Shown here in pieces: positions 32,701 to 63,004 of a stretch of 64,000 bases of DNA (within the stretch, counting starts at the first letter, position 1; each line of letters starts with the position of its first letter). The stretch is from Antedon mediterranea. Its lineage: Eukaryota > Animalia > Echinodermata. A model generated the notes under the pieces. That model was not told the DNA's origin, did no database searches, and worked only from the letters and a program-made list of their open reading frames with translations. The position numbers and the translations under genes were made by a program. Location of the stretch: NCBI RefSeq assembly GCF_964355755.1, contig NC_092680.1, forward strand, positions 4,526,001 to 4,590,000. Reading direction: 5' to 3'.

Positions 32701-35700
32701 CTTTTGGGTAAAATTAAACATAAGTTAATAAGTTAAATATTTATTTTTATTAGTTTTTTTTAACAGAAGTGAATAACTTTTATTAAAACTGCAAAATGGC
32801 ATATTTAAAGTCTGATTTTATTAATCTTCATTTTTCATGTTTTTGGAGACATACATCTTTAAAGGTTTCATTTCGAATAAACATTAGTAAAATTAGCTTT
32901 TGCGGTACACCAATTTCAAGCAATTTTTTTTTATGTAATAAATGATATTAATTTAATGATTGTTTATTTATAACACAGACCAGCTCCACCAGCTACAGTG
33001 TTACCATATGAAAATGCTGATCAAAATAGGTTATCAACCAATGAAGAAGAATTAAAAAGGTTAGTCAGTTATTTTCCTTTTTTATTCCATACATATATTT
33101 TTTTGAATGTGTAAAAGAAAAGGGGTATAAATTTATTAAAATAAAATCATAATTTTTATGTTTTTGTTGCATTCTATCTACACTATCAAACTAGTTCGAC
33201 AAAAGAGTGTGAGGTGCCCAAATATGGCAGTAATATGGCGTCATCGTGTCCATATATGGGCACATCACATTTAATTTCACAAGTTTGATAGTGTAGACAG
33301 AGCTTTAGGTTATTGTTACACAATAAATAAATATGTGTAAAATTGTAAATCTTTTCAACACAAAACAACAATATTTAAATCATTAGTACAGTTATTTCAA
33401 AAGTGTTTCGTAGATTGTTAAAAATAAAAGCAATCAGTAATTCACTTGTATCCCAACTAAAATTCAATATGATTGTTTTAATATTTTTCTGATGACATTT
33501 ACAACAGTTTAAATATCAAACAAAAGGCTAGAATTGACCTTTGAACCTTGCAAAACCTCTTTAAATTGCCTTAGTGATAAAATCTTAAATAATGAATGAT
33601 TATTGTCCAAGTGTGCTTGATATCATCATGAATAAAAAATAATTCATATTTCTTGCCTGGCAGATTGAACAACACAAGTGATCCAACACGATTGGATGAT
33701 GAGCATCGCTTAATAGCTCGCTACACTGCATGTCTGGCTTCTGCTAAAAACACTGTAAGTTGCCTAATTGTCTGTTTGTTTGATATTTCTAAATGTTTAG
33801 TTGTAGTAACATTTATTTTTACATGTTTATTAATATGATTGAATTGTTTTTTAATATTTTAGTTGATGTTTTTTTGGTCTTTCTTGTTTCAATTTAATAG
33901 TTCAATGGTTTTTTTTTTATTTAATGTGATTTTTTTTTTTTTAATGGGTAACCTCGTCAGTACTACTGTTCACCCAATGGGCCAAAATGATCCAGCACCT
34001 TGATCAGTGGGACACTCGACGACTATACCTTACTTTTTTTTAATAGTATTTTACACATAATGTAATGTGTAAGTACCCAGAACCAACAGCTTTACATCCT
34101 ATCCAATGGACGAAGCAAAGAGAGTAAACTATTTTGCCAATACAACATTATAGCATAGCAGGGTCTCGAACCAATGCCTCTCATATGCTATAGTCCTTTA
34201 TCCATTACCATTACACCATACCGCTTTCTCAATACTCAGCAATCCTTCTTTCCTGGAAATGAGACATTTTAGTATCTTGTATCTGGGTTTTTGGAAAATT
34301 GTTTTACTCAAATTTATCCAATCTTTTTTAAAGAATTATGCATAACAAGTGAATTATCTGAAATCTAATATTGGACGTTCTTATTGTATGGATCTTCTTA
34401 TAGTATGATGTATTAAAGATATTTTTTTATGAAATAGGTTTCTGCATCTGAAATTCCGTCAGAATTAGATACTAATCGCAGCCAACGCCAGTTGCTTGCT
34501 CAACTGGAAGCTAAGAATCGCGAGATCATGAAGGAGATACAGAGACTAAAGCAAGAACATGAAGAGGCAGTCAAATCAACAAGTCTTCATCGCAACCCCA
34601 CGTTGCTAGCGGAGTTACGGTTATTGCGTCAGAGGAAGGATGAACTGGAGTTGCGAATGGCAGCTCTGCAGGACAGCAGACGAGAGTTGATGGTACAACT
34701 GGAAGGACTCATGAAACTTCTTAAGGTATAGAAGTACAATTAAGTAGTCAATAATTATGTTTAGGTCAAACGTTAAATTACATTTTTCGCATGTTACTTC
34801 CAATGATCATCCACACGATACTTTAATTCAAGGTGCGTCACACCATCTGCAAGAAGTGACAACTACCGATTATGTTTACCATATATATATATATTATATT
34901 GCAGTCTTTAAATTACAGTAATTGTCAGTTAAAATATGTTGTAATATTTTGTATTACAATTATAGTTGCCCATACATTATTGGTTATAAGTTGATTGACA
35001 TAGTCTAATACACAAACGAATTAAACCTTGATACGATAAATAATTCTTTAAAATTGAACACAGTTTTGTCAATATCCTCAATGTGTATGTGTAAGCTCTG
35101 TCTATACGATCAAACTAGTTTGACAATAAAGGTGTGATGTGCCCAAATATGGAGGTGATATCATCATGTCCATATATGGGCACATCCCATTTTGTTTGAT
35201 AGTGTAGTCAGAGCTTTAGATCACTGATACCAAACTTTGATACTTAAAATTAATTGTTGTTTGTCTAAATTGTATAGAATCAAGGATCACCTAAGACCAG
35301 TCCAGTGAACAGTCCACGCCCTGGTGTATCAACTCCTACTCATCGTTCCTCGGTATCAAGTCAAGCCGACTCTATAGGAAGTGACAGTGACAGAAAGGAT
35401 TCATACGACGCGTCTTCGGGGAAGACGTCAAGAAACCTAAGAAATGATCTTCTTGTAGCTGCAGATTCTGTTACAAACGCGATGTCATCACTGGTTAAGG
35501 AGCTCAATTCTGGTGAGGTTTTATGTTATTATACAATGCCTCTCCCAAAGTTCTGTCTACACTATCAAACTTTATGTGAAAAAAAATTTGATGTGCCCAT
35601 ATATGGACATGAAGATTTCATATCACTACCATATTTGGGTATATCACTACAATATTAGGGCACATCACACTTTTTTTGTCAAACTAGTTTGATAGTGTAA

Positions 35701-41659: not shown

Positions 41660-43340
41660 CTATAAGGTGATGATAACGCACTATACGTGCATATATGGCA
41701 ATAGTATAGTTTTGACATAAATGGTTACTATTGCATAATAAACATGCGCAGAGTCGATTAATGGGTTCTGCACATGTTAATTGTGCTATGTAACCAGTTT
41801 TATCGAAAAATAAAAAGTTAGAAAATTTGCCATTTTTTGGAAAAAATCCCTGTACAGGAAAATTTGTGAAAAATGGCCGATTTTCGACCCTTTTATATTT
41901 TGACATAAATGGTTTGTATACCACATTAAACATGTGTAGAGGCGACTAATGGGTTCTGTGCATGTCAATTGTGCTACAGTAACCAGTTTTGACATAAATG
42001 GTTACTATAGCATAATAAACATGCGCAGAGTCGATTAATGGGTTCTGCGCATGTCAATTGTGCTACAGTACCCAGTTTTGACATAAATGGTTACTAAAGC
42101 ATAATAAACATGCGCAGAGTCGATTAATGTGTTCTGCGCATGTTAATTGTGCTATAGTAACCAGTTTTATCGAAAAATAAAAAGAGCGAAAATTTGCCAT
42201 TTTTTTGGAAAAAATTCCTGTACTATAGTACAGGGAAATTTTCGAAAAATGGTCGATTTTCGACCCTTTTATTTTTTGACATAAATGGTTACTATAGCAC
42301 ATTAAACATGCGCAGAGGCGACTAATGGATTCTGCGCATGTCAATTGTGCTACAGTAACCAGTTTTGACATAAATGGTTACTATAGCATAATAAACATGC
42401 GCAGAGGCGACTAATGGGTTCTGCGCATTTCAATTGTGCTATCATAACCATATTTGACATAAATGGTTACTATAGCATAATAAACATGCGCAGAGAGGAA
42501 TAATGGGTTCTGCGCATGTCAATTGTGCTACAGTAACCAGTTTTGACATAAATGGTTACTATAGCATAATAAACATGCGCAGAGACGAATAATGGGTTCT
42601 GCGCATGTTAATTGTGCTATAGTAACCAGTTTTAACAAAAAATAAAGAGGTCGAAAATTTGCCATTTTTTCGAATAATTGTGCTATAGTAACCATTTATG
42701 TCAAATATGGTTATGATAGCACAAAAAATATAAGGGTCGAAAATCGGCCATTTTTTTTAAATTTCCCATTCAAAAATGGCCAAAAATATCGACTTTATAA
42801 AATTCAATTATCATGCAATACTATTGCCATATATGCACATATATTGAGTTATCATCATCTTATAGTCATAGTAACCAGTTTTGTCAAAAAATAAAAGGGT
42901 GGAAATTTTGTCATTTTTCGAAAATGTCCCTGTACTATAATAGTACAGGGATTTTTTCAAAAATAGCCAAAATATCGACTTTTAAAATTCAATTATTATG
43001 CAATAATATTGCCATATATACAGTACGCATATATTGCGTTATTCGTCATTTTTAGAAATTTTACCTGCGTACTGGACTCTATTAGATGATGATAACGCAG
43101 TATATACGCATATATGGCAACATTATTGCATACAAATTGAATTTAAAAAAACGATATTTTGGCCATTTTAAAAAAAAAACCGTCTAGATGACAATTTTCG
43201 ACCCTTTTATTTTATTGAAATAACTGCTTACTATATCATAATTCACATGCGCAGAGTCAACTAATGTGTCTTCGCATGTCAATCATAACTATATCTATAG
43301 TAACCAGTAAAAAAAATATGGAAAGGTCAAAAAATTGCCA
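41660..43340. repeat. Composite array of 89-bp palindromic units and ~100-bp palindromic spacers, bounded by inverted repeats (foldback-like)
   Basis: Unit starts (GACATAAATGG) at 41714, 41902, 41991, 42080, 42278, 42367, 42456 and 42545. Each unit reads GGTTACTATAGCA..ACATGCGCAGA-loop-TCTGCGCATGT..TGCTATAGTAACC. 41661-41707 is inverted at ~42817-42864. Confidence 0.9.
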
Positions 43341-43803: not shown

Positions 43804-46028
43804 TTAGTTGCAATGTTCGTTGACGTCAGTTGTAGTCTTGCGTTTCCAGGCGAAGAGGAAATGTCCAAATCCTGCTCCGAGAACAACAGAAAGCCCGATC
43901 CAGACGTCAAACGTCATCACTAACAGCATTAACATGTAGCTCACAGTCACTTGTACGATATGAAGCAACGACTGTAGAAGGTTCCAAGCACTCCACATTG
44001 TTGACCTGTGTAAGAAGTAAAACGAAGAAAAATTTTTAGTGTATTGTTTTTATACTGTACAATCTATAGTTCATCACTAAAAGTCAGATCATATCTACAT
44101 ACATTCTCTCGAATTAAGAATAATATAGATCCGCTACGCAACATATTTCTAGTGTCGAATTTACAAAAGAAGAATAACCAATTCCTGAAACTTGTAGTAT
44201 AAATTGTAATTACGGTAATTACAATATTAAGAAAGACATAGAGTAAAAGTAGCCCTACAACGTACTTGACCAACATAATTTGACACAGGAATTAGGCCTA
44301 ACATACTTCAACCATGGAGTAAAGATTCTTTACTCCATGCTTCAACACGCAAAAGAGTTTCAAAATTAAAAGTGTAATTACTAATAATAAAGAGAATACG
44401 GTAGGCCTATAAAAAATGAATCGATAACCCAAATGAATTATCCAGATATTGATAATAAATCGATACTTACCCATATTCGTCATCCAATTGAGCAAGCGGG
44501 GTCATGCTTCCACTCTTTTCAAGATCGGTGGCTTCGTATCCACGTTGTTTTGAATAACGATGAATGAGTATTTCCCGGAAAACCTTCAAACCTTCGTAGA
44601 GAGCGGCAATTACAAAGATGACGACACATGCCGCGATAAAACCTACAACAAAACAAACATGTTTTGAACTTTAAAATAAAACAAAACTAAAAACAAGTAC
44701 ATCAGACCAATTGAGGAAATAAACAAAAATTTAAAATTGAATAGAACACAAATTGATATAAAAAACGTAAATTAGTTAATTGTCATATTGACATGTTTTA
44801 CATTTGTGTACAATCTTTCAATTACTGAACCAAATTATAGGATTTATCAGTACACGTAATGGCTGGCTTGGTTCATGTTCTATTGAACGTAATGGCTGCA
44901 GTATGATCCTGTTTAGTCTTTGTGTATTGTGGCTGCTGAAATAGAAATAATATTTTGAATTGTGAACGAGAATGCAAACAATTAAACAACGGCGTCCCTG
45001 GATGTTCGTGACGCTTATTGTTCAATGTTATATAGCATCACCATTTTAAATCAAGTTTTTAGTAGAAAGCTCAAGAAGAATTAATGAATAAAACGAATAA
45101 GATAGACTACTTACTTCCTATATCGTCCTCGATTACACTGAAATTTTGAAACAGCAAAATCACTTTCTCGCCAATGGTAAAATATCCCTGAATTATTCAA
45201 GAAAAATGGGAGTGAACATGAGATAAAAATATTATAAAATACAGTGGCCTATGTAAAATGTACACAATCGTGGCATGCATAAACAATTTTAAATAAGGAC
45301 ATAATTATTCCATGGCCACGCCACAGTTCGAGTCCAACCAGATAATACCTGCTAAAGCTATATGTCTACACTATCAAACTAGTTTAACATAAAAAAAAGG
45401 TGTGATGTGCCCAAATATGGTAGTTGATGCTCAAATATGGTACAGTAGTGATATGACATCATCATGTCCATATATGGGCACATCACATTTTTTTGTCACA
45501 TAAAGTTTGATAGTGTAGACAGAGATTAATAGTGTTCAGTACCTTACATGAGGTGAAAATATCGGGCCAATACAAATATGTGTTTTAATATTGTGAATAC
45601 TACTGTACATTAAAAGACATACACCATTCCGTCTATGCGCAATTAAACTGAGTTGTCTATAGTGAATCTTACATCTTTCTACAACTTTTTATTTAAGTCA
45701 CCAAACTGTTGCCACTAAACTGTCGACTGTCTTATTTAACTCGACTCCGCCTCGTTAGATACATTCAATCTTTTAAATCATAAAATATAAATATTCTCCA
45801 CAATCATTAACTCATAAGCTTTCATATTGTATGGTTACTTACATTGTGACCACCAGATGAATGATCAGAAGAACCGGGATCGTGAGACATATGATCCTCT
45901 GTGGCCATTCCCATGTGGTGGAGGTTGTGGTTGTGTGTCGTCATTGCATGGTGTCCACCATGTGCACCGTTCATCATGCCGGTGGTCATCATATTATGAT
46001 GTCCGGGTTCATCGGACATCATGTGCAT
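43804..46028 (-). CDS. SLC31A1: Ctr/SLC31 copper transporter (Ctr1-like), ~210 aa
   Basis: Exons on -: 46028-45843, 45187-45115, 44642-44471, 44005-43804 (GT-AG, 633 nt in frame). His/Met-rich ectodomain, TM1 FIAACVVIFVIAALYEGLKVFRE, TM2 LQSLLHIVQVTVSYMLMLLVMTF with MxxxM, TM3 with GxxxG-type SVVLGAGFGHFLF, and C-terminal EHCN. Confidence 0.95.
45356..45525. mobile_element. Harbinger-type MITE family A copy in a ctr1 intron
   Basis: TAA|AGCTATATGTCTACACTATCAAAC ... GTTTGATAGTGTAGACAGAG. Confidence 0.82.
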
Positions 46029-46682
46029 CGTCTCTGTCACCTTTTGCTGAAAAAGTTTTGAAGATATAAACCTGTAAGTTGGGTACTGGGTATTGGAATT
46101 TCGTACTACCAAACAATTGTCTTCATAATTATTCATAATTATTAATGAAATGCATCGTCGGAAAATTAACCACATGACAATGCAGATCACAAAAGTATTG
46201 TCTGCATTGTTTTGATGGCGCAATTTTTCGTTTTATTGTATTTTGTTAGACCTAACCGACCTGACTTTTTGTAACACAGCAGTGGCTCAGAAAATAAATA
46301 ATGGAAGTAAGAACTATACATAAACTCAAGTCTGATATATATTTAGTCTGAGTTGGTTAATGTAACATTTAGGTAAAATCCACATACAGTATTGTAAGCG
46401 TAACACTAAATGTAGCATTGTTGATTCAGCCATAAGGAAATGACCTGAGATCACGCACAGGCCTAAGATTTTAAAACAAACCTCATGAACTTCATACTTT
46501 AATAGAGTATTTTGATAGTTTCCAACTATTACTCAACTTACCATATTGTAGGTCTACTATCATGCGTAATCCAAATTGTTTAACTCTTGTTTTTAGGCTG
46601 TATGTTTCTTTAATAACAACTTGTTTTGAAGCTTAGTTTAAAATGCCTCAGTAATTCTAATACAAACAATGAAAGCACATAC

Positions 46683-46830: not shown

Positions 46831-48130
46831 TTATTTTTCTTCTTACATTTTATTTGCTTAATAAGCCTATATGTTCCCAGGTTAGTACCAGAGTAGTAGT
46901 AGAGTAATACTTTGAATAATTATGAAATTAGTTTCTTTTCATCTAATTCATTTAATGCCAAATTCTCACTTATTGTACCATTCGTCCCGCGGCTATATTA
47001 TACCTTTCATATTAAATAGAAAACGTTCTCGATACTTATGCGACCCAAACTTCCATCGGTCATTTCTGGTACTCCATTGGCAACTCCTTTACCGTATAGG
47101 TAAAGCGATGCATTTTCAATAAATTGAATACTAAAATATGAATAATTCATGTTTCATGAAAAAAAATAGAAGCATGTTTCATATTTCAATTGCGACGGAA
47201 TTGTACGAATGAAAAACATAAGGAATATAAGAACATTTTTGTTAAAACTCTTAAAGAAATATATCATGAACCGGATGGTAATATCGGAAATAGGTAGGAC
47301 TAACCAAACCAACCAAAAAATGCTGCATATATATTACAAAGAACAATCATAGTCGATGTCATGAAAAGGAAACCATTTTGACGAAGAGTTGATGACGACA
47401 AGTTTGTTTTGTTATTTAAAATATCTATTTACGGTATGTTATTTTCATAAAATGTTGTTTCTATTTTTTTATTACTGCGTATAAAGAGAGGGCGCAGTCA
47501 TTTAGCAGGTCGACTACAACCGAATATATTTACGTTTCGTGACAGGGTGGAAAGGCGAAGATTGACACCGATCAATATCTTCATATCGGTAAAGTATTCT
47601 CATAACCTTTATTGTAATAATTTAGTAAAAATTAACTTACGAATGTATGTTAGAGAATGGACCAGTTATTTAAAGTTATGTAGGCTTATTAGCATAGGTA
47701 TATTGATTGTTGAGTCCTCGAATATATCCGGTTAGGCCTACCTGTACAACAAGGAAGTAAATGTTCATCATTCGGGTCTGGTATTAAAAACTATTACAAT
47801 GTTTGTGTTGAATTCTGATGAATACATGAAAGAAGTATAATTTTATTTCTTTTGTAATATTATTATTGAAAAAAAAAGATATTTGAAAAAAAAGGAGTGT
47901 GGTCAGAATAAAATATTATCATTACTAAAGATATGAACCTAATATGCGGCCTACACTAAGTTTTTTTTTTGCAGATCATAACAATAATAATCTCTACATC
48001 AGGTCGTCGTAATTGCATTTACTGTAGGGTGTATAGAATATAGGCATATCAACTAATTAATTTCTTCTATAATAATTGAACTATGAACTTTTCTTTGTTT
48101 ATAGAAAGATATACATACAGTACCAGGAAA

Positions 48131-51100
48131 ATGGATAAAAAGGTGTTGAATTACTTGAAAGGATATGCTGAATCGTTCAAGCGGAGTTTTAACATGCGAG
48201 TTTTAGCAGAAGATACTGAGATTAAAGAAGCTTACAAAACAGCTCAAGAAAGAGGAAAAGTACCATTTAACAGAACAAAGCTTCTTATTATGGGTGATCA
48301 TGGTGCCGGGAAAACGTCAACCTGCAGGCGTTTACAAGGAAAAGACTTTCGACCAGAAGAGCCTAGTACAATCGAAATAGAAACAAACACTGTTACAGTG
48401 AACGTTAGTGATGTTAATAGTAAATGGTGTGAAGTGACCAGCACTCCACTTGAAGATTATGAAAGTTCAGCAGCGTGGTGGACAGTATCACGTGTGCTCA
48501 AACAGAGCAAACTTAAGACATCGAGGGCATTTGATTCGTCTGACACAAATACACTATCAATCCGGAAGCTACTGGAGGACGCTTGTTATCTAATGTTGTA
48601 TCTGATCCCTTTTACTGTCATACTATGTTTTGGTGGGTTTACATTCGGATTCGGGCCAGTTGTGTGGTTATACATCGTTTGTATTATGACAATATGTGAT
48701 GTCCACAGTGCATATCGCGTTGGTTGTGGATACACTATAGTGATGGTCCTTGTAGATAGCGCAACACAATTAAGCGAGCAGACTGAATATTTACAAAATA
48801 TGGAGTTAAATACATGGGTTTATTTTACAGCACCACTAATGATTGTTTGCTTGTGTGGATTGGGTTCGTTTATCGTCGGAGTGCTTATGAGTACAGGTGG
48901 TAGGACTGGTATCTGTTTAGCATTGTGCATCATGGTACATCCAAAACAATACATTATTTCTATGGACGTTTTTTTAGAAAAACTGTCATTTATTTGCGAA
49001 CTATATCTTAAATTCGTCATTTCTGCAGTCATTGTAACAGTAATTTATAGAAGAATTCACACACAAATATTTTCAATCAGTCGAAGAAAGTTTACTATTG
49101 TATTATTACTTAACATAATGATTATCATTGCAGCAACGTTTTATTTCGGAAGAAACCATTTTGTTGACATATGTATTTTATTTTGTTTTATTGCACTTAT
49201 ATTTTCGTTTACATGCGGGCTTATATTAGGAAGAAAGATTATGGCTTATGGGTATGTGCCTGAAAATTACCTTTTAAAGAAATCTTTTGGTTTTATAGCT
49301 GGAATATGTTTAGCAAAAATATGTGGCTGGAGATTTGGAAATGCAATCAATTTAATTAATGTAATTGATGGCCATAATCATTCAAAATCACGGTATTTTT
49401 TGGACTTGTTTTTATTTTTTGCACCAATTGTTGCTTTTATTGTCTATGAGTTATTCTCATATGTCAAAGTAAAAACTACGTCATCAATACCAATACCGCA
49501 TATCAGAAAATCAATGAAAGCGGATCTTCGAAATGAAACAAATATTGATGCGAGACTAAGTTTATGGGATTTTTCAGGACAAGAAATGTACTATAATACA
49601 CACCATCTATTTATGCCAAAGCAAGGCGTATACTTGGTTGTTTTCAACGCTGTAGAAGCGATTTCTAATCCTGATAGACACATTAAACGGCTACAATTCT
49701 GGTTACAATCTATTGCTATGCATGTTGATATTGAGAATGTTGTAGTGTTTCTTGTAGGAACAAGAAGAGGAAGTGTACGTGATGCAAATGCGTTTTCTAC
49801 TTTTGATAAATTTGTAAATGTACATCTTTATAAAAGGTTTTCACGATTGCTTGCTTTTCATCCAAGTGGACGACTTTGCTTTTTTATTGAAAACGCATTC
49901 CAAATTGATAAGGAGCTTACCATCTTACGAGAGAGGATATATAGTGAAGTTTCGAAATTGAAATACTTTTGTGAAAAGTTTTCTTTGAAATACTTATTAT
50001 TTAAAAACACGTTAAATGGATTTCGACATAGACATTCTGTTATTGTGAGTATAAAAGAAATTAAAAATGAATTAAAGTTAACAAGCAAAATCTTTGTGAA
50101 ATATGAAGTGCGTCAACTTTTAGATTTCTTTGATAAATCTGGAGATATTATATACAATAAACTCGATGAACTACTTCAGAATTATGTTGTTTGTGATCCT
50201 CAAGTATTAATAGACATTCTGAAATTATTGGTGAATGTACCTGAACCTCACAAAAGAAACAGAGCCGTGTCTGATCTTTGGCAGAGATTACTGGAAACCG
50301 GAATTGTTGATAGTAGACTATTGGAACACATTTGTAGAAACAAAGAAATTTGGAGAGTTTATCCTTATGTTATTCGGTACTTGGTCGGAACACAGTTGAT
50401 GTTTCCACTTACAATAACTAATCAAGTTGATCAAGTTGGAACATTCTGTCTTCCTTGCAAATTGCCCAAAATTGATTCAATGCAATTTGAAATGTATTAT
50501 AGTGATCATATTTCTGACACATTTTATTTCGATTTTAGTGAAGTTTTGATAGAATATATATTTCTTCGACTTATTGCAAAATGCTGTCAAGATTTTGATT
50601 GGACTAGAATATATTATAACTGTGCACATTTCAAAGCAAGTGAAACATTGTTTTTTCAAATAAACACTGAAACAGTTTCTTCAGGCAGTATTTTTCTATA
50701 CGATAGAAATCTCATCAAACTATCAGTTTCTAAAGAAATTCCGAGTCAATCAGTTAATATCTTACAGAAAATACATTCTTTCATTGAAGAAATAATTTTA
50801 CAGACATTTAATCCAGATTACTTTCGTGATCAGTATGTTTGTGGTCCAGTATGTGAAAGATGTAGTTCATTGGATGGAACGATGTGTTTGGTGAATCTTG
50901 TTGCAATAAGTACAGATGTTTCTGCATTGAATGAATACAGACCAGATGAACACCACAAAGTTTATCGTAAACCAGAGGTAACTATTAATACTTTTTGCTT
51001 GTTTTTACGCCATCTTTCAATGAATTTAATTACTGTATATGTGTGCCTAAACAGACAATAATTTGGATTTTTATTTTAAATGCTTTTTTCTTCTTTTTTC

Positions 51101-51132
51101 AGTTCTGTTTTACCTGCAGTAGAGACCAATAA
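48131..51132 (+). CDS. Roco-family (ROC-COR) GTPase with multi-pass transmembrane insert, paralog 1 (~958 aa)
   Basis: Exons 48131-50977 and 51103-51132; the acceptor at 48104 makes ATG 48131 the likely start. P-loop KLLIMGDHGAGKTS, G2 STIEI, G3 LSLWDFSGQEMYYNTHHLF, WLQSI, G4-position VFLVGTRR, G5 FIEN, and COR motifs LDFFDKSGDIIY, VVCDPQVL, FCLPCKL, FLRLI. Hydrophobic block at ~48590-49465. Confidence 0.9.
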
Positions 51133-52883
51133 GCGCCAATCAATAAACAGCCATGTATTTTCTATGCAATCAGTTATATACAGAGTAGATATCTAGGCCT
51201 ACATACAGGCGGTACTGTATAATAATTAGGGTGTAAGTGAATCAGTTTGCCCATTTTATGTCATTTGATACCGAATAATCAAATGTTTGAAAAAAAACTA
51301 ATATTAAATAGACTACTATAAAAATGTATTTTTGTTTCTTGGTCAAATAAAAGCACAGCGCATATTTATAGCTAAGCTTGGTATAGAATATACATTGTCG
51401 GGATTGTGTACTGCTGTGACTGCTGTTCTGTGCCCAATATAGTAATATCCAAATAATGAATGTTTACAGGCCTATAAGTTGGATGGCGGAGAATACTTCA
51501 TAAGTTCAAATATTGCTATATTTAACAAGGCGGAGCCGATTTGTATAATATCAACCTGATATTATATTGAGTCAATCTTTTAATTCATAAACATATTCTC
51601 CCCCCCCCCCCCATCCAACGAATACAAAACGTAGGCTACATTCATTATTTATTTTATACACACCTTTAACGTTAAAAGGTAAAAGGCAGATAAGCGATAC
51701 AAAAAGTCTCTATAGGCAATTGAAACTGATCTAAGCTCATTTTTTCCAACAGCTTCATGTCTTGTACAGTTGTTTTCATTAATTATTAAAAATCATACAA
51801 ACGACCTATAACTTAGTTTTTTGTTGGGATTTCCACCGTACGACTACGACAACAACAACAAATATAATAACACTAATAATGTTTTAAATATAATATGGCT
51901 AAGCAGCTGTTTTTTCATGAATCTCCATGTAGGCCTAGTGATATAGTGAAGTGGTAGTCAGTACTGTAGTAGGCTCGTTATAGTTGAATTCTTTATCAGA
52001 AACATTTGCTTCTGCCGTATTGTTTGATTTTATCGAAGCAGATTGCTTGTGAAATGTCTGTATGATGTTGTTGTCGACTTAACTTAACAGCGTATTCGCC
52101 ATCAAGAAGCCTTTGTTTATTTTATAACTTTGCGAGCGGTTTGTCGGCAGAAGGAATTGAACGTTTCATGTCAGACTGAAGCGTATCCTTATATTTTTAG
52201 TCCATGGTAAGATCTACTGCATGCTTATTAGAAAACGTTGAATAACAATACTAAAGAATTTAGGGCAATCTACTTTTGTCTGATAAAAAGCTTTCCTTTT
52301 GTAACTTTATACTATAGAGTATGGTACCTTTAAAAGGAGATTGTAGAGCATCGATTTTTGTATGAGTATTGAGTAAAGAATCAATTATATCAGCAACAAT
52401 CATACATTACAAACACTGAGATAGTAGCAAATAATAGCTAGCGTGACATGTTAAAAAATAATACAAGAATTAAATCATTACGATATGCGTTGAAATAGTG
52501 TGAGTCTGGGACTTGATATTAGTAAAAAGATAAATATTTTGGCATAATGGCGTTTCATACGTATACTATTTGAGCTTGTAAACTCCGTCTGGGCAAGCGC
52601 GTACAATTCACGTGATTTGACAACGAGAATTCTTGGTGCATACTCTTATCCGATTGACTAGTTTTAGCCGAAAATATTTGAATATGATTTTTTGGAAATT
52701 TCAAATATTTAACAAATAAGATGATGCGCATGCGTTATATTACGTTTTGACGATGTGGAGACACACACGTACTCCATGTCGTCTTCGCGAAATGACGATG
52801 TGATGATGAAAGTTTCTGTGAATGCTAGATATGGAAATGATTTTACGCCTAGTCTGGTAAATAGTTACAGAGAAAGGCATAAT

Positions 52884-52893
52884 GGGACTTTCC
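52884..52893 (+). promoter_or_regulatory. Perfect canonical NF-kB site GGGACTTTCC upstream of Roco paralog 2
   Basis: Exact 10-mer beside a locally CpG-enriched patch (52560-52800) with TCACGTGA and GCGCATGCG motifs. Function untested. Confidence 0.4.
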
Positions 52894-53834
52894 CCAAGAA
52901 CAAGAACACTAACAGTGGGCAACACTCTTTCAATACCTGTCAAAATTTATATTTCAACAATTGTCTTATAAATACGTAATAACCTGTGTTTAGTCGGGTG
53001 ATTTTATTTAATACACCTTTACTATATTTTGTTTGTATTCATTTGTGTAAAGTAATGATCTACTGTATGTATCGATGTAAATTGGAGGAGGGGGGGGCGG
53101 GGGGTAGGATAGGGGTTGATAGTTGCTTTTGCCTTTTTACTTTTCTGTTAATTGTTATATTTTATATTGTTATTGTAAAGGATGCACCTTTGTGCTAAGT
53201 GTGCCACCGATCTAAAGGTGTAATTCCAAATAAATAAATATTGCCATTAGGCCTATGGTTATATGTTATACGATATACTGCATGTTTATTGGATAGCATT
53301 GGATTCCGATATTAGACTCTTTGTCTATAAGATTCTCCTCTGTAATTGTATACAAAACAACAATTTGTAAAACTTAGTTTCTAAAGATAAATTTTAAAGG
53401 CACTATCTTGAGCTTCTTTGTTACTTATGCTGGTATTAGCTTTATTGAGAGAGTACGTACGTAATTCTCATTGCGGAATTCAATAAAACTAAAGCAGTGT
53501 AAGACTGTTCTTTGTTCTATTGACTCGGAGTGTCTGTTATGTTTATAATGTATACAGATTATTTTTATAATACTGTAGTATACTGTAACACAAAAATGTA
53601 AAGCGAAAATCAGACGACTGTACTCGATCGTTTCCTAGAATAACTCTTGAAATCACTGAATCAGGAACTTAAAGAAGCAATCGATTACCAGTTCAAGTAA
53701 CATTATTGAAATACAATCTAGAGGTACTGACAATACAATACTGTCAAAGTAACACGGTAAGAACTACTAAATGCTAACTAATTATGATTGATAACACGTT
53801 AGCTGTTGTTAATGATATTTTATTGTGATATTAA

Positions 53835-54104
53835 CCCTTTGAAGACGTGGCCCATATCCCATACGGGGTAATTTACTGTCCCAGGACGCGAGGCCCGTAT
53901 ATGTTCAGGTTGACTTTTTGGAGTAACTGAATTGCACTTTTTGAGAATTTGACCATTGACCTAGGTAAAAAAAATGCTTTTTTTTTCGGAAGGCCAAAAC
54001 ATTTCACATCAAAATAAAATCAACAATTGCAGTTTTTTTAAATACCGGTACATTATTTAGCGTCAGTCACTTGGGGTAGAAACCTCGCGTCTTCCTTCAA
54101 AGGG
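53835..54104. mobile_element. piggyBac-type MITE (270 bp)
   Basis: TTAA|CCCTTTGAAG ... CTTCAAAGGG|TTAA: TTAA target duplication with CCC/GGG termini. Confidence 0.85.
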
Positions 54105-54213
54105 TTAAAGATTGAAATATTGCTATTATTTGGTAATGTTAATGTGATACGGAATTATTTTATATAGCATAATATTTGATGCTACTTAGCCAAGTTAGAG
54201 ATAGTCTGGTAAA

Positions 54214-57200
54214 ATGGAACAACAAGGATTGAATTACTTACGAGGATTTGCTGAATCGTTTAAGCGAAGTTTTAACATGCGAGTTTTAGCAGATGATACT
54301 GAGATTAAAGAAGCTTACAAAACAGCTCAAGAACGAGGAGAAGTATCTTTTAACAGAACAAAGCTTCTTATTCTGGGTGATCATGGTGCCGGGAAAACCT
54401 CGACTTGCAGGCGTTTTCGAGACAAAGATTTTCGGCCAGAAGAGCCTAGTACAATCGGAATAGAAACAAACACGGTTCAGGCAAAAGTCAGTGATGTTAA
54501 TAGTAAATGGTGCGAGGTAACAAACACTCCATTAGAAGACTATGAAAGTTCAGCAGCGTGGTGGACAGTATCACGTGTGCTTAAGCAAGGTAAAAATAAG
54601 CAACCAAAGACATGTAAACAATCTGAAAATGATGCAAATATGTCGATCCGAAAAATATTTGAGGACATACGTTACCTGCTGTTATATTATATTCCCATGA
54701 CTGTACTTTTCTGTTTTGGTGGACTTACTTTCGGGTTCGGACCGGTTGCATGGTTGTATATTATTTACCTTTCAAGAATTTGTGATGTTCACAGTGCCTA
54801 CCGCTTTGGTTGTGGGTACACTATATGTATGGTACTCATAGACAGTGCTACACAATTGAACGAACAGTTTTCTCAGCAACCTGTCGTTGAGTTCAATATT
54901 TGGCTTTATATGACTGCTGTTATAGTTGTTTTTTTGTATGAATTAGGATCATTCCTTGTTGGTGTACTTATGAGCGCAGGTGGAAGGACTGGTATTTGCT
55001 TAGCTTTTTGCCTCATGGTACATCCAAAACAGACTATTATTTCTATTGAAGTTTTTTTAGAAAAAATATCATTTATTCACAATATAATATACTTTGAGTT
55101 TGTAATTTCTGCAGTTATTTTAGTAGTTATTTTTAGACTTATGCATACCAAAATATTTTCGCTTAGTCGAAAAAAGTTATTCCTTGTATTTATACTAAAC
55201 ATAATGCTGATAATAACAGCAATATATTTCGAAAGGCAAAATTTTGTTGACATATTTACTTTGTTTTGCTTTATTTCATTCGTGTTTTTTGTACTGTGTG
55301 GAGTTTTTTTAGGAAGGCAATTTGTGGCGTATGGGTATTTCCCCAAACACTACATTTTAAAAAAGGTGATTGGGTTTATTGCTGGAATATATATTGGCAA
55401 AATGTGTGGTTGGAAATTTGACAATTTTAACCATCTCACTATCTTAGAGAAAGACCATAACCTTCCAAAATATTTGCTTAAAATGTTGTCATTTGTGGCA
55501 CCGATTTTGGGTTTTATTATCTACGAGTGGCATTCATATATGAAGGTAAAAAGTACGTCATCAATACCAATCGTGCATATTAGAAAATCAATGGAAGCAG
55601 ATCTACGAAACGAATGTTACATTGACGCCAGACTAAGTTTATGGGATTTTGCAGGACAAGAAATGTACTATAATACACACCATCTTTTTATGCCAAAGCA
55701 AGGCGTATACTTGGTTGTTTTCAACGCTGTAGAAGCGATTTCTAATCCTGATAGACACATTAAACGGCTACAATTCTGGTTACAATCTATTGCTATGCAT
55801 GTGGATATTGAGAATGTTATAGTGTTTCTTGTAGGAACAAGAAGAGGAAGTGTACGTGATGAAAAGGCGTTTTCAACCTTTGAGAGATTTGTAAATGCAC
55901 ATCTTTACAAAAGGTTTTCAAAATTGCTTGCTTTTCATCCAAGTGGACGACTTTGCTTTTTTATTGAAAACTCATTCAAAGTTGATAAGGAGCTTAACAT
56001 CTTACGAGAAAGGATATATATTGAAGTAAAGAAATTAGAATACTTTTGTGAAAAATTGTCTTTAAAATACTTATTATTTAAAAACACGTTGAATGGATTT
56101 CGTCATAGACAGTCAGTTATAACGAGTATAAAAGATATTGAAGATGAATTAAAGTTAACAAGCAAAAACGTTGTGATATTTGAGGTGCGTCAACTTTTGA
56201 ACATATTTGATAAATCTGGAGATATCATATACAATGAACTTGATGAACTACTTCAGAAATATGTTGTTTGTGATCCTCAGGTATTAATAGACATTCTGAA
56301 AGTATTAGTGAATGTACCTGAACCACACAGAAGAAACAGAACCGTGTCTGATCTTTGGCAGAGATTACAAGAATCAGGGATTTTAGACAGTAGAATAATG
56401 GAACACATTTGCCGAAATAAAGGAATTTGGAGAGTTTATCCTTATGTTATTCGGTACTTGGTGGGAGCACATATTATGTTTCCACTTACAATTACTGATA
56501 AAGTTGATCAAGTTGGAACATTTTGTCTTCCTTGCAAATTGCCCAAAATTGAGTTACAACAACGTGAACTTGATTATATTGATCGTACTTCTGACATATT
56601 TTATTTCGATTTTGGTGAGGTATTATTAGAATTTGTATTTCTTCGACTTGTTGCAAAATGCTGCAATGTGTTTGATTGGAATAATATATATTATAACTGT
56701 GCACGGTTTAGAGCAAGTGAAACATGTTTTTTTCAAATAAGCACTGACACAGTTTCTTCAGATAGTATTTTTTTATATGAGAGAAATATCATCAAACTTT
56801 CAGTTTCGAAAGAAATTCCGAGTCAGTCAGTAAATATCTTACAGAAAATGCTTATTTCGGTTGAAGAAATAATCAAACAGACATTTAATCCTGATTACTT
56901 TCGTGATCAGTATGTTTGTGGTCCAATATGTGAAATATGTAGTTCATTGGATGGAACGATGTGTTTGGTAAATCTGGTTGCAATAAGTAAAGCTGTTTCT
57001 GCTTTGAAGGAATACAGAGTAGATGAATACCACAAAGTTTATCGTGAACGAGAGGTAATTGTATTTATTTTAATTTGTGCAAAAGTTTTTTTTTAAGACC
57101 TCGTAGACCTAGTTATGGGAGCCTGTTAAGTTGAAACAGACATATTAAACATTTCATAATTTTGTTACTGTAGTAGGCTTTATTGTAAGTGAATGGAAAT

Positions 57201-57427
57201 ATTGGGGTTGGACACAGTAATGTTTTAGGTCTCAGTGACGTTTCTAATAACGTTTAAATAACAATTACACAAAGACTACTGAGGATGTACTGCTACAAGC
57301 AGTCTTCTGGTAAAATTTTGTAAAGTTCACACAATCAATACTTTATTTTAGCCATAAGCTAATTTAGTTTTAAAATGCTTTAATTTTGCAGTTCAGTTTT
57401 ACATGTAGCAGACCGATAACCACCTAG
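54214..57427 (+). CDS. Roco-family (ROC-COR) GTPase with multi-pass transmembrane insert, paralog 2 (~958 aa)
   Basis: Exons 54214-57054 and 57392-57427. GDHGAGKTS, STIGIE, WDFAGQEMYY, VGTRR and COR motifs as in paralog 1. Confidence 0.9.
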
Positions 57428-57744
57428 TCAAGATTCGAGAATTAATGCCTAATTAAGTGTATTCAGATTGCTAGCTGGTACCTATCACTACTGTAGATAT
57501 GCGGTCAGTTGTATATCATACATACCGATTTTGATACATTGTATAGAATACGGTGAGTTAAGTGTTTTTTAAAAATGTATTTTTTTATTATATAAGGCCT
57601 ACATAGAAATAGATGTTACATTGTGTTCTAACCTGGTTTATCGCACATGGCATACCCTGAAAATCATGATAATGAGTAATATAGTTTGAACATCGCATCA
57701 AATTAGAAATACCTTGTTATTGAAACCAAAACATAGAAAGAAAA

Positions 57745-57805
57745 GGCCCCATATACATGACTGCAGTCGCGTGCTCAAGTTAGTGTTTATCGACCAACCG
57801 ACATT
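57745..57805 (-). repeat. Short HINE-like repeat end, inverted relative to 63130-63200
   Basis: AGGCCCCATATACATGACTGCAGTCGCGTGCTCAAGTTAGTGTTTATCGACCAACCGAC is nearly the reverse complement of the insert within the MITE at 63005-63233. Confidence 0.65.
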
Positions 57806-58137
57806 TATGGTGTCAGTTCCAATTATAGATTTATGTGTATATTCTAAATTGCACATAACCCTAACTTTTCCGATGTTTACTAACATAGTATTAATACATC
57901 TTCCATAACATACGCCGTGTACACTTATTTGATTGCAGTTACTTACCGTAGAGGGATTGTATGGATATTACAATCAATAATATGTCATTAATGATTTTAT
58001 CTTGTGAATGGTTACACACAAACGTATAGTTTATTTACTAAATACAACTTACTGTACACGTTATATAACAAGTGAATTTGAAAGAATAAATTTGAAAGGA
58101 TACATTTGAAGATAAATTAGTCAGGTGAGTGTAAAAT

Positions 58138-58639
58138 GGAGGTTTATCTTACGAATACGATAACGAAAACGGATACGTAACGCACACGTATTCGTTTTTC
58201 GTAAGCCAGTAAAAATCTGTTTCGCATGGCAACGAAATATTGAGGGCGCCTTCCAAAATATGACTGCGGTAAATTTGAGCGAAGCGCAGGTACGTGTTGC
58301 TTGGTGCTTGGCTGCCTAGGCCTAGCGTAACAGCAAAGCGAGTGAGGACCTTAAAAACTGCTATTTATCAAAATCGACCTGGCATTTTAGTAAATTACTT
58401 TAGTAAATTACTTTCAATAAAAGTATAATTAAATTATAATCATGAATCATTCCTGATTCAAATGCAAAATGTGCAAAATAGATCAAAAACTATACTCGTT
58501 TTGTAGTTACGAATATGACTGGTGATATTCGTCAACACGAATACGCTTTACGAATATGAAATGGGGATCAGCTCAAAAGTTTCACAAATGTATGACGTAT
58601 CCGTTTTCGTTATCGTATTCGTAAGGTTGCGAAACCTCC
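58138..58639. mobile_element. ~500-bp non-autonomous TIR element upstream of Roco paralog 3
   Basis: GGAGGTTT..CTTACGAATACGATAACGAAAACGGATACGT ... ACGTATCCGTTTTCGTTATCGTATTCGTAAG..AAACCTCC (31-bp perfect inverted core). Confidence 0.8.
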
Positions 58640-59212
58640 CTAATGTATTTACTGTACGTTATTAGAATATTAGTCTTAGTGGAGAGAAATAGTGTGATTT
58701 ACAAACTTAACATATGCCTATCAAACCAAGATTTTGCTAAGGCAAATCAGTTTTCGATAAGTTACGTTGGAAAATGGAGAAGACATACGTGAAGGGAGGA
58801 AGTATTTTATATGCTTCATGTATGTTGTCAAGTTATATTCAATAGTATTATAAAACGATATACAGAATACAAAGAAGAACAAAAGTATACTTCACGGTCC
58901 TTGAATCACAGGTAGGATTAAAGCATTTTTCTTCAGGCAAGGTTATACTGAACTTTAAAAATACAATACTGATTTTGTTGATTACAAATAATACACACAG
59001 TACGATTATAATACAGAGTATAGACGATTGCATGTATGAATGGCAAAATCCGACTTATGAATTATTATGGCTGAGATACACAGTCAATTCTAAAACAAGC
59101 ACTAGTGTTATGCAGCTCAGTATTATTATAAAAGTGTATCCTTTTTTTATTTAAGCACGATTTCCGGCGAGCAGCAATCAATTTCATTCACATAATTTAA
59201 ATTAACCATAAG

Positions 59213-62200
59213 ATGGATAGCAAAATATTGAAATATTGGAAAGGATATACTGAATCTTTCAAACGTAGTTTCAACTTGCGAGTTTTAGCAGATGATACTG
59301 AGATTAAAGAAACCTACAAACAAGCTCAAGAAAAAGGAAAAGTACCTTTTAACAGAACCAAAGTTCTTATACTGGGTGATCATGGTGCCGGAAAAACGTC
59401 AACTTGCAGACGTTTACAGGGAAAAGATTTCCGACCAGAAGAGCCTAGTACAATCGGAATAGAAACAAACACCGTTGAGGCGAAGGTTAGTGATGTTAAT
59501 AGTAAATGGTGTGAAGTGACCAGCACTCCACTTGAAGATTATGAAAGTTCAGCGGCGTGGTGGACAGTATCACGTGTGCTTAAACAGGGTAAAAATAAAT
59601 CAAGTGGTTTGGTAGAAAATAATGCACAAGGAAAGATCCGAAAAATATTGGAAGACACATTTTACTTATTGTTGTATATTGTTCCTTTTACTGTTATACT
59701 GTGTTTTGGAGGTTTTACCTTCGGCTTTGGGCCAGTCGTGTGGTTATACATCGTTTGTATTATGGGAATATGTGATTTCCATAGTGCATATCGCTTTGGT
59801 TGTGGATATTCAATATGTATGGTCCTTATAGACAGCGCTACACAATTAAATGAACTGTTTACAAATTTACAAAGCATACAGTACAATATATGGATTTACG
59901 TGACTGCTGTTACGGTCGTTTGCATGTATGGAATTGGTTCGTTCCTCACCGGTGTGATTATGGGTACGGGTGGAAGGACTGGTATCTGTTTAGCATTGTG
60001 CTTCATGGTACATCCAAAACAGACAACTATCTCACTTAAAGTTTTTTTGGAAAAACTATCGTTGATTTACAATATAAAATACCTTGAGTTGGTAATTTCT
60101 GGAGTTATTATATCTGCAATTTTTAGGAGCATTCACAAATATATATTTGTACTTAGTCGAAGGAAGTATATTATTGTATTAATAATTATCATAATCTGTA
60201 TCATTGCAGCAACATACTTAGGAAGAAACGATATAGTTAACATATGTATTATATTTTGTTTTACGGCAATAATCTTTCTATTAATATGCGGGCTTATAAC
60301 TGCTAGAAAGGTTTATGTTTACGGGTATGCACCTAGAAATTACTTTATAAAGAAATCGTTTGGCTTTATAACGGGATTGTGTTTATCAAAGATGTGTGGT
60401 TGGCGACTTGAAAATGTAAGAACATTAATTCATTTATGTGATAGAAATAATCTTTCCAAATCACTGTATTTATTTAACTTATTTTCATTTTTTGCGCCAA
60501 TCATTGCATTTATTATCTACGAGTTGTTATGTTACATTAAAGTAAAAACTACGTCATCAATACCAGTAGTGCATATCAAAAAATCAATACAAGCAGATCT
60601 TCGAAACGAATGTTACATTGATGCCAGGCTAAGTTTATGGGATTTTGCAGGACAAGAAATGTACTATAATACACACCATCTGTTTATGCCAAAGCAAGGC
60701 GTATACTTGGTTATTTTCAACGCTGTAGAAGCCATTTCTAATCCTGATAGATACATTAAACGGCTACAATTCTGGTTACAATCTATTGCTATGCATGTTG
60801 ATATTGAGAATGTTGTAGTGTTTCTTGTAGGAACAAGAAGAGGAAGTGTAGGTGATGAAAATGCGTTTTCTACTTTTGAGAAAATTGTAAATGCACATCT
60901 TTACAAAAGGTTTTCTAGGTTGCTTGCTTTTCATCCAAGTGGACGACTTTGCTTTTTTATTGAAAACTCACTCAATCTTGATAAAGAACTTAATTTCTTG
61001 CGAGAAAGAATATATAATGAATTTACGAAATTAAGATACTTTAGCGAAAACTTTTCTGTCAAATATCTTTTATTTAAAAACACCCTAAATGGATTTCGAC
61101 ATAGACAGTGCATTATTGTGAATATAAAAGATATTGAAGATGAATTAAATTTGACAAGCAAAATCTTTGTGAAATATGAGATGCGTCAACTTCTGAATTT
61201 CTTTGATAAATCTGGAGATATCATATACAATGAACTTGATGAACTACTTCGGAATTATGTTGTTTGTGATCCTCAGATATTAATAGACATTCTGAAATTA
61301 TTAGTGAATGTACCTGAACCACACAGAAGAAACAGAGCCGTGTCTGATCTTTGGCAGAGATTACAAGAAACAGGGATTATTGATAGCAGGTTATTAGAAC
61401 ACATTTGCCGAATGAAAGGAATTTGGAGAGTTTATCCTTATGTTATTCGGTACTTGGTTGGAACACAGTTGATGTTTCCACTTACAATAACTAATCAAGT
61501 TGATCAAGTTGGGACATTTTGTCTTCCTTGTAAATTTCCCAAAATTGATTTACAACAATGTGAATTTAATTATAATTATCATAATTCGGACATATTTTAT
61601 TTCGATTTTGGTGAATTTTTACTAGAGTTTATATTTCTTCGACTTCTTCCAAAATTCTGCGAAACCTTTGATTGGATAAGGATCTATTATAACTGTGCAC
61701 ATTTCAGAGCAAGTGAAACATGTTTGTTTCAAATAAACACTGAAACAATTTCTTCTGGCAGTATTTTCTTATATGATAGAAATCTATTAAAACTTTCAGT
61801 GTCCAAAGTAATCCCGAGTAAATCAGTCGATATCTTACGGAAAATGCATACTTTCATTGAAGAGATAATCAAACAAACATTTAATCCGGATTACTTTCAT
61901 GATCAGTATCTTTTTGGTCCAGTATGTGAAAGATGTAGTTCTTTGGATGGAACGATGTGTCTGGTGAATCTTGTTGGCTCAAGTAACAATGTTTCTCCAT
62001 TGAATGAATACAAAGTAGATGAATATCACACTGTGTATAGTAAATCAAAGGTAATATTTTGTTTATTGTTTTGCTTTAGTATTTTCTCTTTTGGTGAGAT
62101 TTAACACATCTTTTTTAATTAACCAGCCTATAAATCCAGAATAGGCGTACACAATATATTGTGTGTTATTTAATAATTTTATTTATGAATGTTAATTTTG

Positions 62201-62254
62201 CAGTTCAGTTTTACCTGCAGTAGACCAATCAGTTTCACCCAGACAAGTGTTTGA
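59213..62254 (+). CDS. Roco-family (ROC-COR) GTPase with multi-pass transmembrane insert, paralog 3 (~962 aa)
   Basis: Exons 59213-62050 and 62204-62254. Same G motifs and COR; ends FSFTCSRPISFTQTSV*. Confidence 0.9.
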
Positions 62255-63004
62255 GAAGTTGCTACAGCTTTTAATAGTTTATAATGTTAGTTATTTACTA
62301 TCTACACACATGTTCTATCGATATGCACATTGTTAATGGCAGATAATATTCAATAATCTAGAAAGTTTATGTTAAATAACATGCTTGATGATTCGTTCAA
62401 TATGGATATAATAGTGTTTATAATATAATGTATATGGTCAACGTAAGGATAGAGATTAATTTAATAATAAATTATATTTTGTATTGAAATTATTATAGAT
62501 TGCCATCGTCATAATATTGCATGGTTATCAAATGTTAAATCTATGTAGCAACTTATTACATTACATAAAAGAAGGTATCAGTTCAACCGAGTTGAATACA
62601 TATGTCAATAAAGATGCATAGAATGTAAAAGCAAATCAAATTAGTAATTAAAACAAAACTTATAATATTGAAATTGTGGAGTAAATTAATAAACAAAATT
62701 AATTGTGCGGTATTATTGTTATGTATGTGCCTACGTAATCATACATGTCTTTATGTAATTTACTACTTTCTATTGTAGAATAATATACAATGTATATATT
62801 ATTTACCGGTGATAATATTATTTAAAGTAAAATGTCCCTGTGAAAACGTTTGAACTACAAACCAATGACTGGGGCGGTACATCTGTCAAATGATAACGCA
62901 GGCGAGCTCAGCGAGGACGTAAACCTCGCGTAGAACAAAAGGGCAAGCTCGCTTTATTTTGATTTTCAATATGTTTAATGTGTAACAAAACTACCAAATG
63001 TTCC

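Follow-up and report, generated by a model that had tools for sequence, protein, structure and literature searches.

A predicted multi-pass membrane domain inside the ROC G-domain of Roco proteins from the feather star Antedon mediterranea

Roco proteins such as LRRK2, DAPK1, MFHAS1 and the Roco of Chlorobium tepidum share a ROC G-domain (motifs G1–G5) that is followed directly by a COR domain. In the order described for the family, a sensor made of leucine-rich repeats (LRR) precedes ROC and COR and an effector follows them, and switch II relays the nucleotide state to COR and to a monomer–dimer cycle (PMC6337361, PMC8195603). DAPK1, like some relatives of the proteins described here, ends in a Death domain (PMC6337361), sea-anemone genes of the order LRR-Roc-COR-TIR exist (PMC5094078), and brown algal Rocos carry non-conserved insertions in ROC (PMC11378527) and can have a C-terminal domain resembling a transmembrane protein, although it lies outside ROC (PMC4104024). 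The window analysed here, 64 kb of AT-rich animal DNA from the feather star (crinoid) Antedon mediterranea (NC_092680.1, positions 4,526,001 to 4,590,000, plus strand), holds three tandem genes for Roco proteins of a different build: LRR, ankyrin and kinase domains are absent, and the G-domain is split by about 375 residues that include a predicted multi-pass domain.

Other systems combine an NTPase with membrane helices. The FeoB iron transporter also joins a GTPase to a polytopic membrane domain within a single chain, but there the membrane domain comes after an intact G-domain and no COR is present, and the FeoB membrane domain in Pfam gave no match to the feather-star insert. The closest precedent in design is provided by the KAP P-loop NTPases, whose inserts have two to four helices against about ten in the feather-star insert. 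It is the design that is shared, not homology: KAP proteins (Kidins220/ARMS, PifA) have membrane segments within the NTPase domain, to judge from a title cited in PMC8195603, and in the feather-star proteins, where membrane insertion is predicted, the NTPase is of another class, a Ras-like ROC with COR. Pfam detected no KAP match in the window proteins (E up to 1) or in 14 more distant relatives (E up to 0.01). KAP ATPases have been linked to anti-phage immunity (PMC8195603). Anthozoan transmembrane NOD-like receptors likewise tie an NTPase immune switch to three to five membrane helices in marine invertebrates, but use a NACHT ATPase, N-terminal helices and LRRs, and their NTPase is unsplit (PMC5094078); no NACHT or LRR domain was matched by Pfam in the window proteins or the 14 relatives.

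No description of a ROC interrupted by a membrane domain was found in the open-access full-text literature, a body that leaves subscription papers mostly outside its coverage, and no characterised family with this architecture was found there; a term search of the supplement tables of PMC8195603 gave a single unrelated row, a 93-residue bacterial TM+AP-GTPase. A first-pass annotation, made from the sequence alone, had named no earlier description of the architecture, which in the literature covered still holds for the split ROC; membrane helices inside a P-loop NTPase have their precedent in KAP.

Three tandem Roco genes with a divided G-domain

The three plus-strand open reading frames (ORFs; 48080–51061, 54205–57096 and 59201–62104; 960–992 residues; 71–75% pairwise identity) are all intact and share one layout, in which the G1–G2 half of ROC is followed by a hydrophobic insert of about 300 residues, the G3–G5 half of ROC and COR, with only about 45 residues upstream of ROC. 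Apart from these ORFs, the sole frame of at least 150 residues in the window is a fragment of a long interspersed nuclear element (LINE). Counted from the ATG at 48131, the 949 residues of gene 1 are identical to A. mediterranea XP_071964456.1. The last 12–27 codons of each ORF are intron read-through, the true C-terminus being encoded by a short final exon. Run X1 was treated as RNA because spliced joints are visible in it, X2 being a DNA run, and residues are numbered on the gene 3 protein throughout unless another gene is named.

47589–48104, plus strand: gene 1 intron (GT..AG) in the 5' untranslated region (UTR); the upstream non-coding exon ends at 47588, and run X1, but not X2, joins 47588 to 48121 through 11 intervening letters of exon
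48131–50977, plus strand: gene 1 main coding exon, 949 codons, with the ROC N-half, insert, ROC C-half and COR (identity to XP_071964456.1; Pfam)
48557–49489, plus strand: gene 1 predicted membrane insert core, aligned to gene 3 residues 141–450; RNA contigs 48689–48937 (0 differences) and 49137–49489 (1 difference)
51103–51132, plus strand: gene 1 last coding exon, 9 codons and stop, then 3' UTR to about 52100 (125-base GT..AG joint in X1; 1007-base contig 51101–52102)
54214–57054, plus strand: gene 2 main coding exon, 947 codons, architecture as gene 1 (ORF, Pfam, alignment)
54643–55566, plus strand: gene 2 predicted membrane insert core (alignment)
57392–57427, plus strand: gene 2 predicted last exon, 11 codons and stop (supported by splice sites and by resemblance to the final exon of gene 1; no RNA joint seen)
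59213–62050, plus strand: gene 3 main coding exon, 946 codons, architecture as gene 1 (ORF, Pfam)
59375–59461, plus strand: gene 3 G1 (GDHGAGKTS, residues 55–63) to G2 (STIGI, 79–83), by alignment to LRRK2 ROC
59633–60562, plus strand: gene 3 predicted membrane insert, residues 141–450, about ten hydrophobic segments (AlphaFold model, see below; conservation; RNA contig 59559–59868, 3 differences)
60638–60970, plus strand: gene 3 G3 (WDFAGQ, 476–481), G4 (GTRRG, 540–544, no Asp) and G5 (ENS, 584–586), by alignment to LRRK2 ROC and motif scan
61043–62047, plus strand: gene 3 COR domain, about residues 611–945 (VIA matches 3dpu, 3dpt and LRRK2; Pfam COR-A weak)
62204–62254, plus strand: gene 3 predicted last exon, 16 codons and stop (X1 contig 62202–62518; splice sites)

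Pfam Roc is matched in two separate stretches of each protein (E 1.4e-18, 1.9e-20 and 2.9e-19). Alignment of the ROC domains pairs LRRK2 14–60 with gene 3 residues 42–86 and LRRK2 65–164 with 462–567, and the β2–β3 turn, four residues long in LRRK2, becomes about 375 residues in gene 3, at a site after the G2 Thr and before G3. G2 and G3 lie 397–400 residues apart in the three window genes, and the G1 Lys-Thr, the G2 Thr and the G3 Asp-x-x-Gly are unaltered in all of them. These figures bear out the three ORFs with a split ROC and some 390 residues between G2 and G3 that the first-pass annotation had described; the motifs it gave for all three, STIGIE and WDFAGQ, hold for genes 2 and 3, while gene 1 has STIEIE and WDFSGQ.

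The Pfam COR-A match is weak (E 7e-4 to 0.03, under the curated cut-off, which is exceeded in two of the 14 relatives). When a full-length model was submitted to a VIA structure search, the top three rows were RocCOR, COR and LRRK2 (Z 11.1, 11.0 and 10.1; root-mean-square deviation, rmsd, 6–8 Å), among them 3dpu (Z 11.1, 266 residues aligned, rmsd 8.3) and 3dpt (Z 11.0, 254 aligned, rmsd 6.1), confirming that COR directly follows ROC. This had also been stated in the earlier annotation, as had the absence of LRR, ankyrin, kinase and Death domains, none of which Pfam matches in the three ORFs. The ESM Atlas model of P0007, an Anneissia homolog (55% identical; predicted template modelling score, pTM, 0.56), superposes on an intact bacterial ROC-COR over 461 residues within the range 35–943 (template modelling score 0.70 by target, both sides being predictions), and since the superposition spans this range the N-half of its ROC appears to sit in place. 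By sequence and modelled structure, ROC together with COR identifies these proteins as members of the Roco family.

The predicted membrane domain between the switches

Alignment-averaged hydropathy has about nine peaks at residues 150–441, five of them above 1.6, against a maximum of 1.23 outside the insert. AlphaFold (52 sequences) models residues 134–463 as a helical bundle with a mean predicted local distance difference test (pLDDT) of 82.9 and pTM of 0.83, the helices being at 138–164, 172–183, 189–210, 226–264, 284–311, 316–336, 338–369, 377–394, 416–447 and 452–462. The eight to ten hydrophobic helices suggested in the first-pass annotation agree with the peaks and the modelled helices, and its placement of a polytopic membrane domain between switch I and switch II agrees with the β2–β3 position in the LRRK2 alignment, membrane insertion being predicted.

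The hydropathy profile can be read as ten segments, two of them short. In this reading, Lys and Arg amount to 9.8 per 49 residues in the inner loops versus 6.0 per 73 in the outer loops of crinoids, and to 9.0 versus 4.2 in non-crinoids. The only strand residues of the insert model, 265–266 and 398–399, must pair and therefore put both loops on one side, as the topology requires. The 226–264 helix may instead make a single crossing, preceded by a re-entrant segment, which would give eight crossings. Both readings are even, as the first-pass annotation had reasoned would be needed, and are predicted to let both halves of the G-domain stay cytosolic.

Seven charged positions (D188, R194, D/E207, R255, R365, K381 and E437) are kept in 84–98% of 49 rows and, with several glycines and Gly motifs, mark a conserved core, and the predicted outer loops are more variable than the inner loops. 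N-glycosylation sequons occur in one predicted outer loop in 16 of 26 crinoid rows and in none of the three window genes; they are weak evidence of topology, as the cytosolic flanks also carry sequons (6 and 9 of 26).

Searches with the insert alone, which had been proposed in the first-pass annotation, gave no match above noise. No family was found in Pfam (14 crinoid inserts, best E 0.02), NCBIfam or PADLOC, no PDB sequence at E up to 10 and no usable match in the ESM Atlas; the insert model reached a best Z of 4.7 in VIA (0 of 48,161 chains at Z of at least 5, low even for chance helical matches) and best E of 0.55 in Foldseek PDB and 0.17 in BFVD. No transporter or channel fold (MFS, DMT, FeoB and others) rose above noise in the VIA and Foldseek searches, and no internal repeat was detected in the insert (best probability 11%). 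Two stretches, GxxxxxGxR for a likeness to MFS motif A and GGFTFGFG for a likeness to the potassium-channel filter, were considered and no support was obtained for either. Lack of sequence and structure matches does not prove a new fold; the insert is a conserved family of predicted membrane domains that is confidently modelled and matches nothing in the libraries searched.

A block of this kind could instead be an artefact, whether an intron, an assembly error or a frame left open by chance. X1 contains two GT..AG joints for gene 1; the first lies in the 5' UTR, the second immediately upstream of the last exon, and neither is in X2. With joints detectable elsewhere in the gene, none in X1 skips the insert. 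Contigs from X1 cover residues 187–269 (0 differences) and 336–453 (1 difference) of the gene 1 insert, stretches in which the other two window genes are only 70–78% alike, and a further contig covers gene 3 residues 116–219 with 3 differences. That this cover is in pieces, mainly over gene 1, with no single contig bridging G2 to G3, is what an artefact would have in its favour. Against it, each insert has one open reading frame, the others holding 13–24 stops, the ratio of non-synonymous to synonymous substitution rates (dN/dS) across it comes to 0.24, 0.39 and 0.24 for the three gene pairs, and gene models from nine named species contain the insert. Purifying selection thus acts on the insert, which is retained in spliced RNA, on partial evidence mainly from gene 1, in answer to the concern of the first-pass annotation that the hydrophobic block might be spliced out. 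An artefactual origin is thereby refuted in effect and is extremely improbable.

Relatives, C-terminal tails and genomic surroundings

A search with gene 3 (5,942 candidates) gave 35 matches, comprising 29 crinoid proteins (11 from Antedon, 18 from Anneissia) and six other ROC proteins; a profile of the insert matches all 29 of the former and none of the latter. When a profile of 14 crinoid inserts was run against 1.84 billion representatives (E up to 0.001), it returned 17 matches, three from crinoids and 14 from others: Ptychodera (four), Glandiceps, Patiria, Acanthaster, Asterias, Amphiura, the nemertean Tubulanus (two) and three further proteins. Roc is present in 17 of 17 (14 of 14 non-crinoid), and the insert was never found alone. 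As the profile is crinoid-only, more distant carriers, for example in cnidarians, may be missed, and a pattern scan for bacterial and metagenomic relatives with the crinoid alignment, which detects close relatives only, gave 120 and 56 pattern matches with none confirmed. HHalign of the inserts alone links the crinoid, asterozoan/ophiuroid, hemichordate and nemertean groups at 97–99.6%, with one divergent Ptychodera protein at 60–90%, and the G2–G3 distance is 366–409 residues in 46 of 49 rows, those in which the G2 pattern was matched. Presence in deuterostomes and a protostome implies, barring gene transfer, a bilaterian ancestor. A still wider range is hinted at by the top feature cluster in the ESM Atlas, in which Cnidaria is the most frequent phylum among 52 members and which may be the protein's own cluster. 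Every named family member is annotated automatically as 'uncharacterized protein'.

The C-terminal tails of the 14 distant matches contain, by Pfam, Death in three and TIR_2 in one, to which BLAST of the tails adds one more Death and one more TIR (E 1e-19 and 2e-10); LRR and ankyrin are matched neither in these proteins nor in the three window proteins. A further search gave 21 matches in all, with 16 Ptychodera proteins on one contig, 12 of these 16 carrying Death. Death or TIR tails thus occur in hemichordates, Asterias and Tubulanus, and the crinoid, Patiria and Amphiura members end shortly past COR. The TIR-like tails of P0041, P0049 and P0055 keep a C-x-x-E-L-type motif, presumably the region that in NAD-cleaving TIR domains holds the catalytic glutamate. 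A C-x-x-C close to the COR end and a terminal C-x-R (window 61900–62254 and relatives) are conserved in crinoids, Patiria and Amphiura and are a possible metal site. Eight shorter crinoid paralogs (P0006, P0016, P0018 and P0025–P0029; 576–769 residues) lack one end and are truncated genes or partial models.

The family is expanded in tandem: 10 of 11 Antedon matches lie on one contig, Anneissia has 18 matches with six on one contig, and Ptychodera shows the same, copies beyond the window having been counted from protein databases. A ROC–COR tree (26 rows, P0031 left out) has an unresolved backbone and shows neither monophyly of the family nor the timing of Death/TIR loss. Between the window genes, four-fold sites differ in 38/69, 27/69 and 27/62 cases in the insert versus 31/182, 30/175 and 34/174 in the ROC–COR core, that is, 39–55% versus 17–20% (Fisher p 8e-9, 6e-4 and 4e-4), and trees of insert and core (FastTree, 23 rows, without P0003, whose sequence is that of gene 1) place the Antedon paralogs differently. 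Gene conversion probably homogenises ROC–COR while the inserts stay distinct.

A Ctr-family copper transporter gene (43804–46232, minus strand; Pfam E 2.4e-17 and 6.8e-7) with a His/Met-rich exon faces gene 1 head to head, at a distance of about 1.3 kb from the gene 1 5' exon; no evidence of a functional link between it and the Roco genes was found. Plus-strand exons at 13008–13352, 17081–17461, 34438–34731 and 35278–35658 match EF-hand_2 and the ZZ zinc finger and include a coiled-coil stretch, and the gene is probably a dystrobrevin. A broken LINE-type reverse transcriptase is split over two frames at 9166–10405 (plus strand), tandem repeats with a period of about 193 bases occupy 58–1953, and a block of nested direct and inverted repeats lies at 41700–43200. 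Dispersed repeats of very high copy number lie between and around the three Roco genes, with depth peaks at about 45400, 52550, 58200 and 63100.

Possible roles of the membrane domain

The reading tentatively favoured, at a little short of an even chance, is that these proteins serve as membrane-embedded sensors for innate immunity or cell damage, with the predicted multi-pass domain doing the sensing that falls to LRR repeats in other members of the Roco family. The membrane domain is likely the sensor by elimination, because only the short leader precedes ROC and there is no N-terminal LRR, and its position exactly in the interswitch turn supports a sensor. Immunity or cell death is pointed to by the repeated tandem expansion of relatives and by their Death and TIR tails, which the first-pass annotation had overlooked, and a homogenised core with distinct inserts is as expected of variable recognition modules. 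The greater variability of the predicted outer loops also counts towards a sensor.

In such a sensor, an even number of membrane crossings is predicted to return both insert ends to the cytosol, where two stalk helices would allow the halves of the G-domain to re-form one fold. A ligand or a change in the membrane would shift the helical bundle, which would pull on β2–β3 between switch I and switch II and so bias the nucleotide-linked monomer–dimer cycle of COR, known from bacterial Roco. This cycle would cluster Death or TIR domains in hemichordates, Asterias and the nemertean; the crinoid proteins, which have no tail, may use the COR surface or a partner for signalling, or may be sensor-only or modulating paralogs.

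Several observations weigh against a sensor of this kind. The immune function rests on domain association. No exon for the relatives' Death/TIR tails was found in the 64-kb window (best E 0.78); the window genes have no effector domain and none shows among the crinoid matches of the gene 3 search, so that the output is unexplained here. Pairwise dN/dS by insert sub-region is 0.11–0.58, with no sign of positive selection, and the higher synonymous divergence of the insert could merely reflect a barrier to gene conversion. ROC is not confidently folded in the full-length AlphaFold model (mean pLDDT 48). Furthermore, G4 is GTRRG in gene 3 where LRRK2 has GTHLD; it ends in Gly rather than Asp in all three window genes and in 5 of 26 crinoid rows (Asp/Glu is kept in 20 of 26), and G2 and G3 of gene 1 are altered as well. 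Judged from G4 without Asp, weaker guanine binding by the window genes is possible.

These last changes, together with the missing Death/TIR tail and the existence of truncated paralogs, would suit crinoid copies that are decoys or regulators with a degenerate switch, having lost effector and guanine specificity and no longer cycling GTP. This is improbable, as the residues of G1, G2 and G3 named above are intact in all three genes, the G1–G2 block is the most conserved region (0.87), and G4–G5 are known to vary among Roco proteins (PMC6337361).

The membrane domain might instead be the output, a GTP-gated pore, channel or carrier with FeoB-like logic or a cell-killing membrane effector, for which Death/TIR tails would be input adaptors where present. 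Members without an effector are intact in crinoids, Patiria and Amphiura, and an output membrane domain would need no extra partner; the helices are Gly-rich with the conserved charged residues listed above, and R255 lies within a 39-residue predicted helix. Paralog expansion and the uneven divergence of the insert better suit recognition, and the internal repeat that is a feature of many transporters is missing, making this output role somewhat unlikely.

A membrane anchor or scaffold that places ROC–COR on a particular organelle, with no allosteric coupling to the nucleotide site, is rather doubtful. Unrelated inserts are tolerated at this turn of ROC: G1–G3 spacing is 122 and 152 residues in two soluble relatives versus 45 in MFHAS1, and hydrophilic inserts are common at the site, as the first-pass annotation had held for G2–G3 inserts elsewhere. 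Brown algal ROC domains range from 77 to 467 residues through insertions (PMC11378527), and LRRK2 activation occurs at membranes (PMC6337361). For anchoring, one or two helices suffice, whereas here a bundle of about ten segments keeps its core motifs from crinoids to the nemertean, in all four groups linked by HHalign.

In its broadest form, the sensor reading would make this family an ancient bilaterian class of innate-immune receptors with a built-in G protein, in which a membrane domain of new fold is threaded through a Ras-like interswitch and a ligand bound in the membrane would flip the nucleotide switch directly, clustering Death/TIR effectors or opening the membrane domain; this is possible, with roughly one chance in three. 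How input controls the ROC–COR switch is an open question for LRRK2 and for all Roco proteins, and an input or output domain placed covalently on β2–β3 between the switches would offer a compact natural system in which to test allosteric coupling. The Death/TIR tails and the tandem expansions that recur in echinoderms and hemichordates make the family a candidate for a branch of invertebrate innate immunity that has been overlooked.

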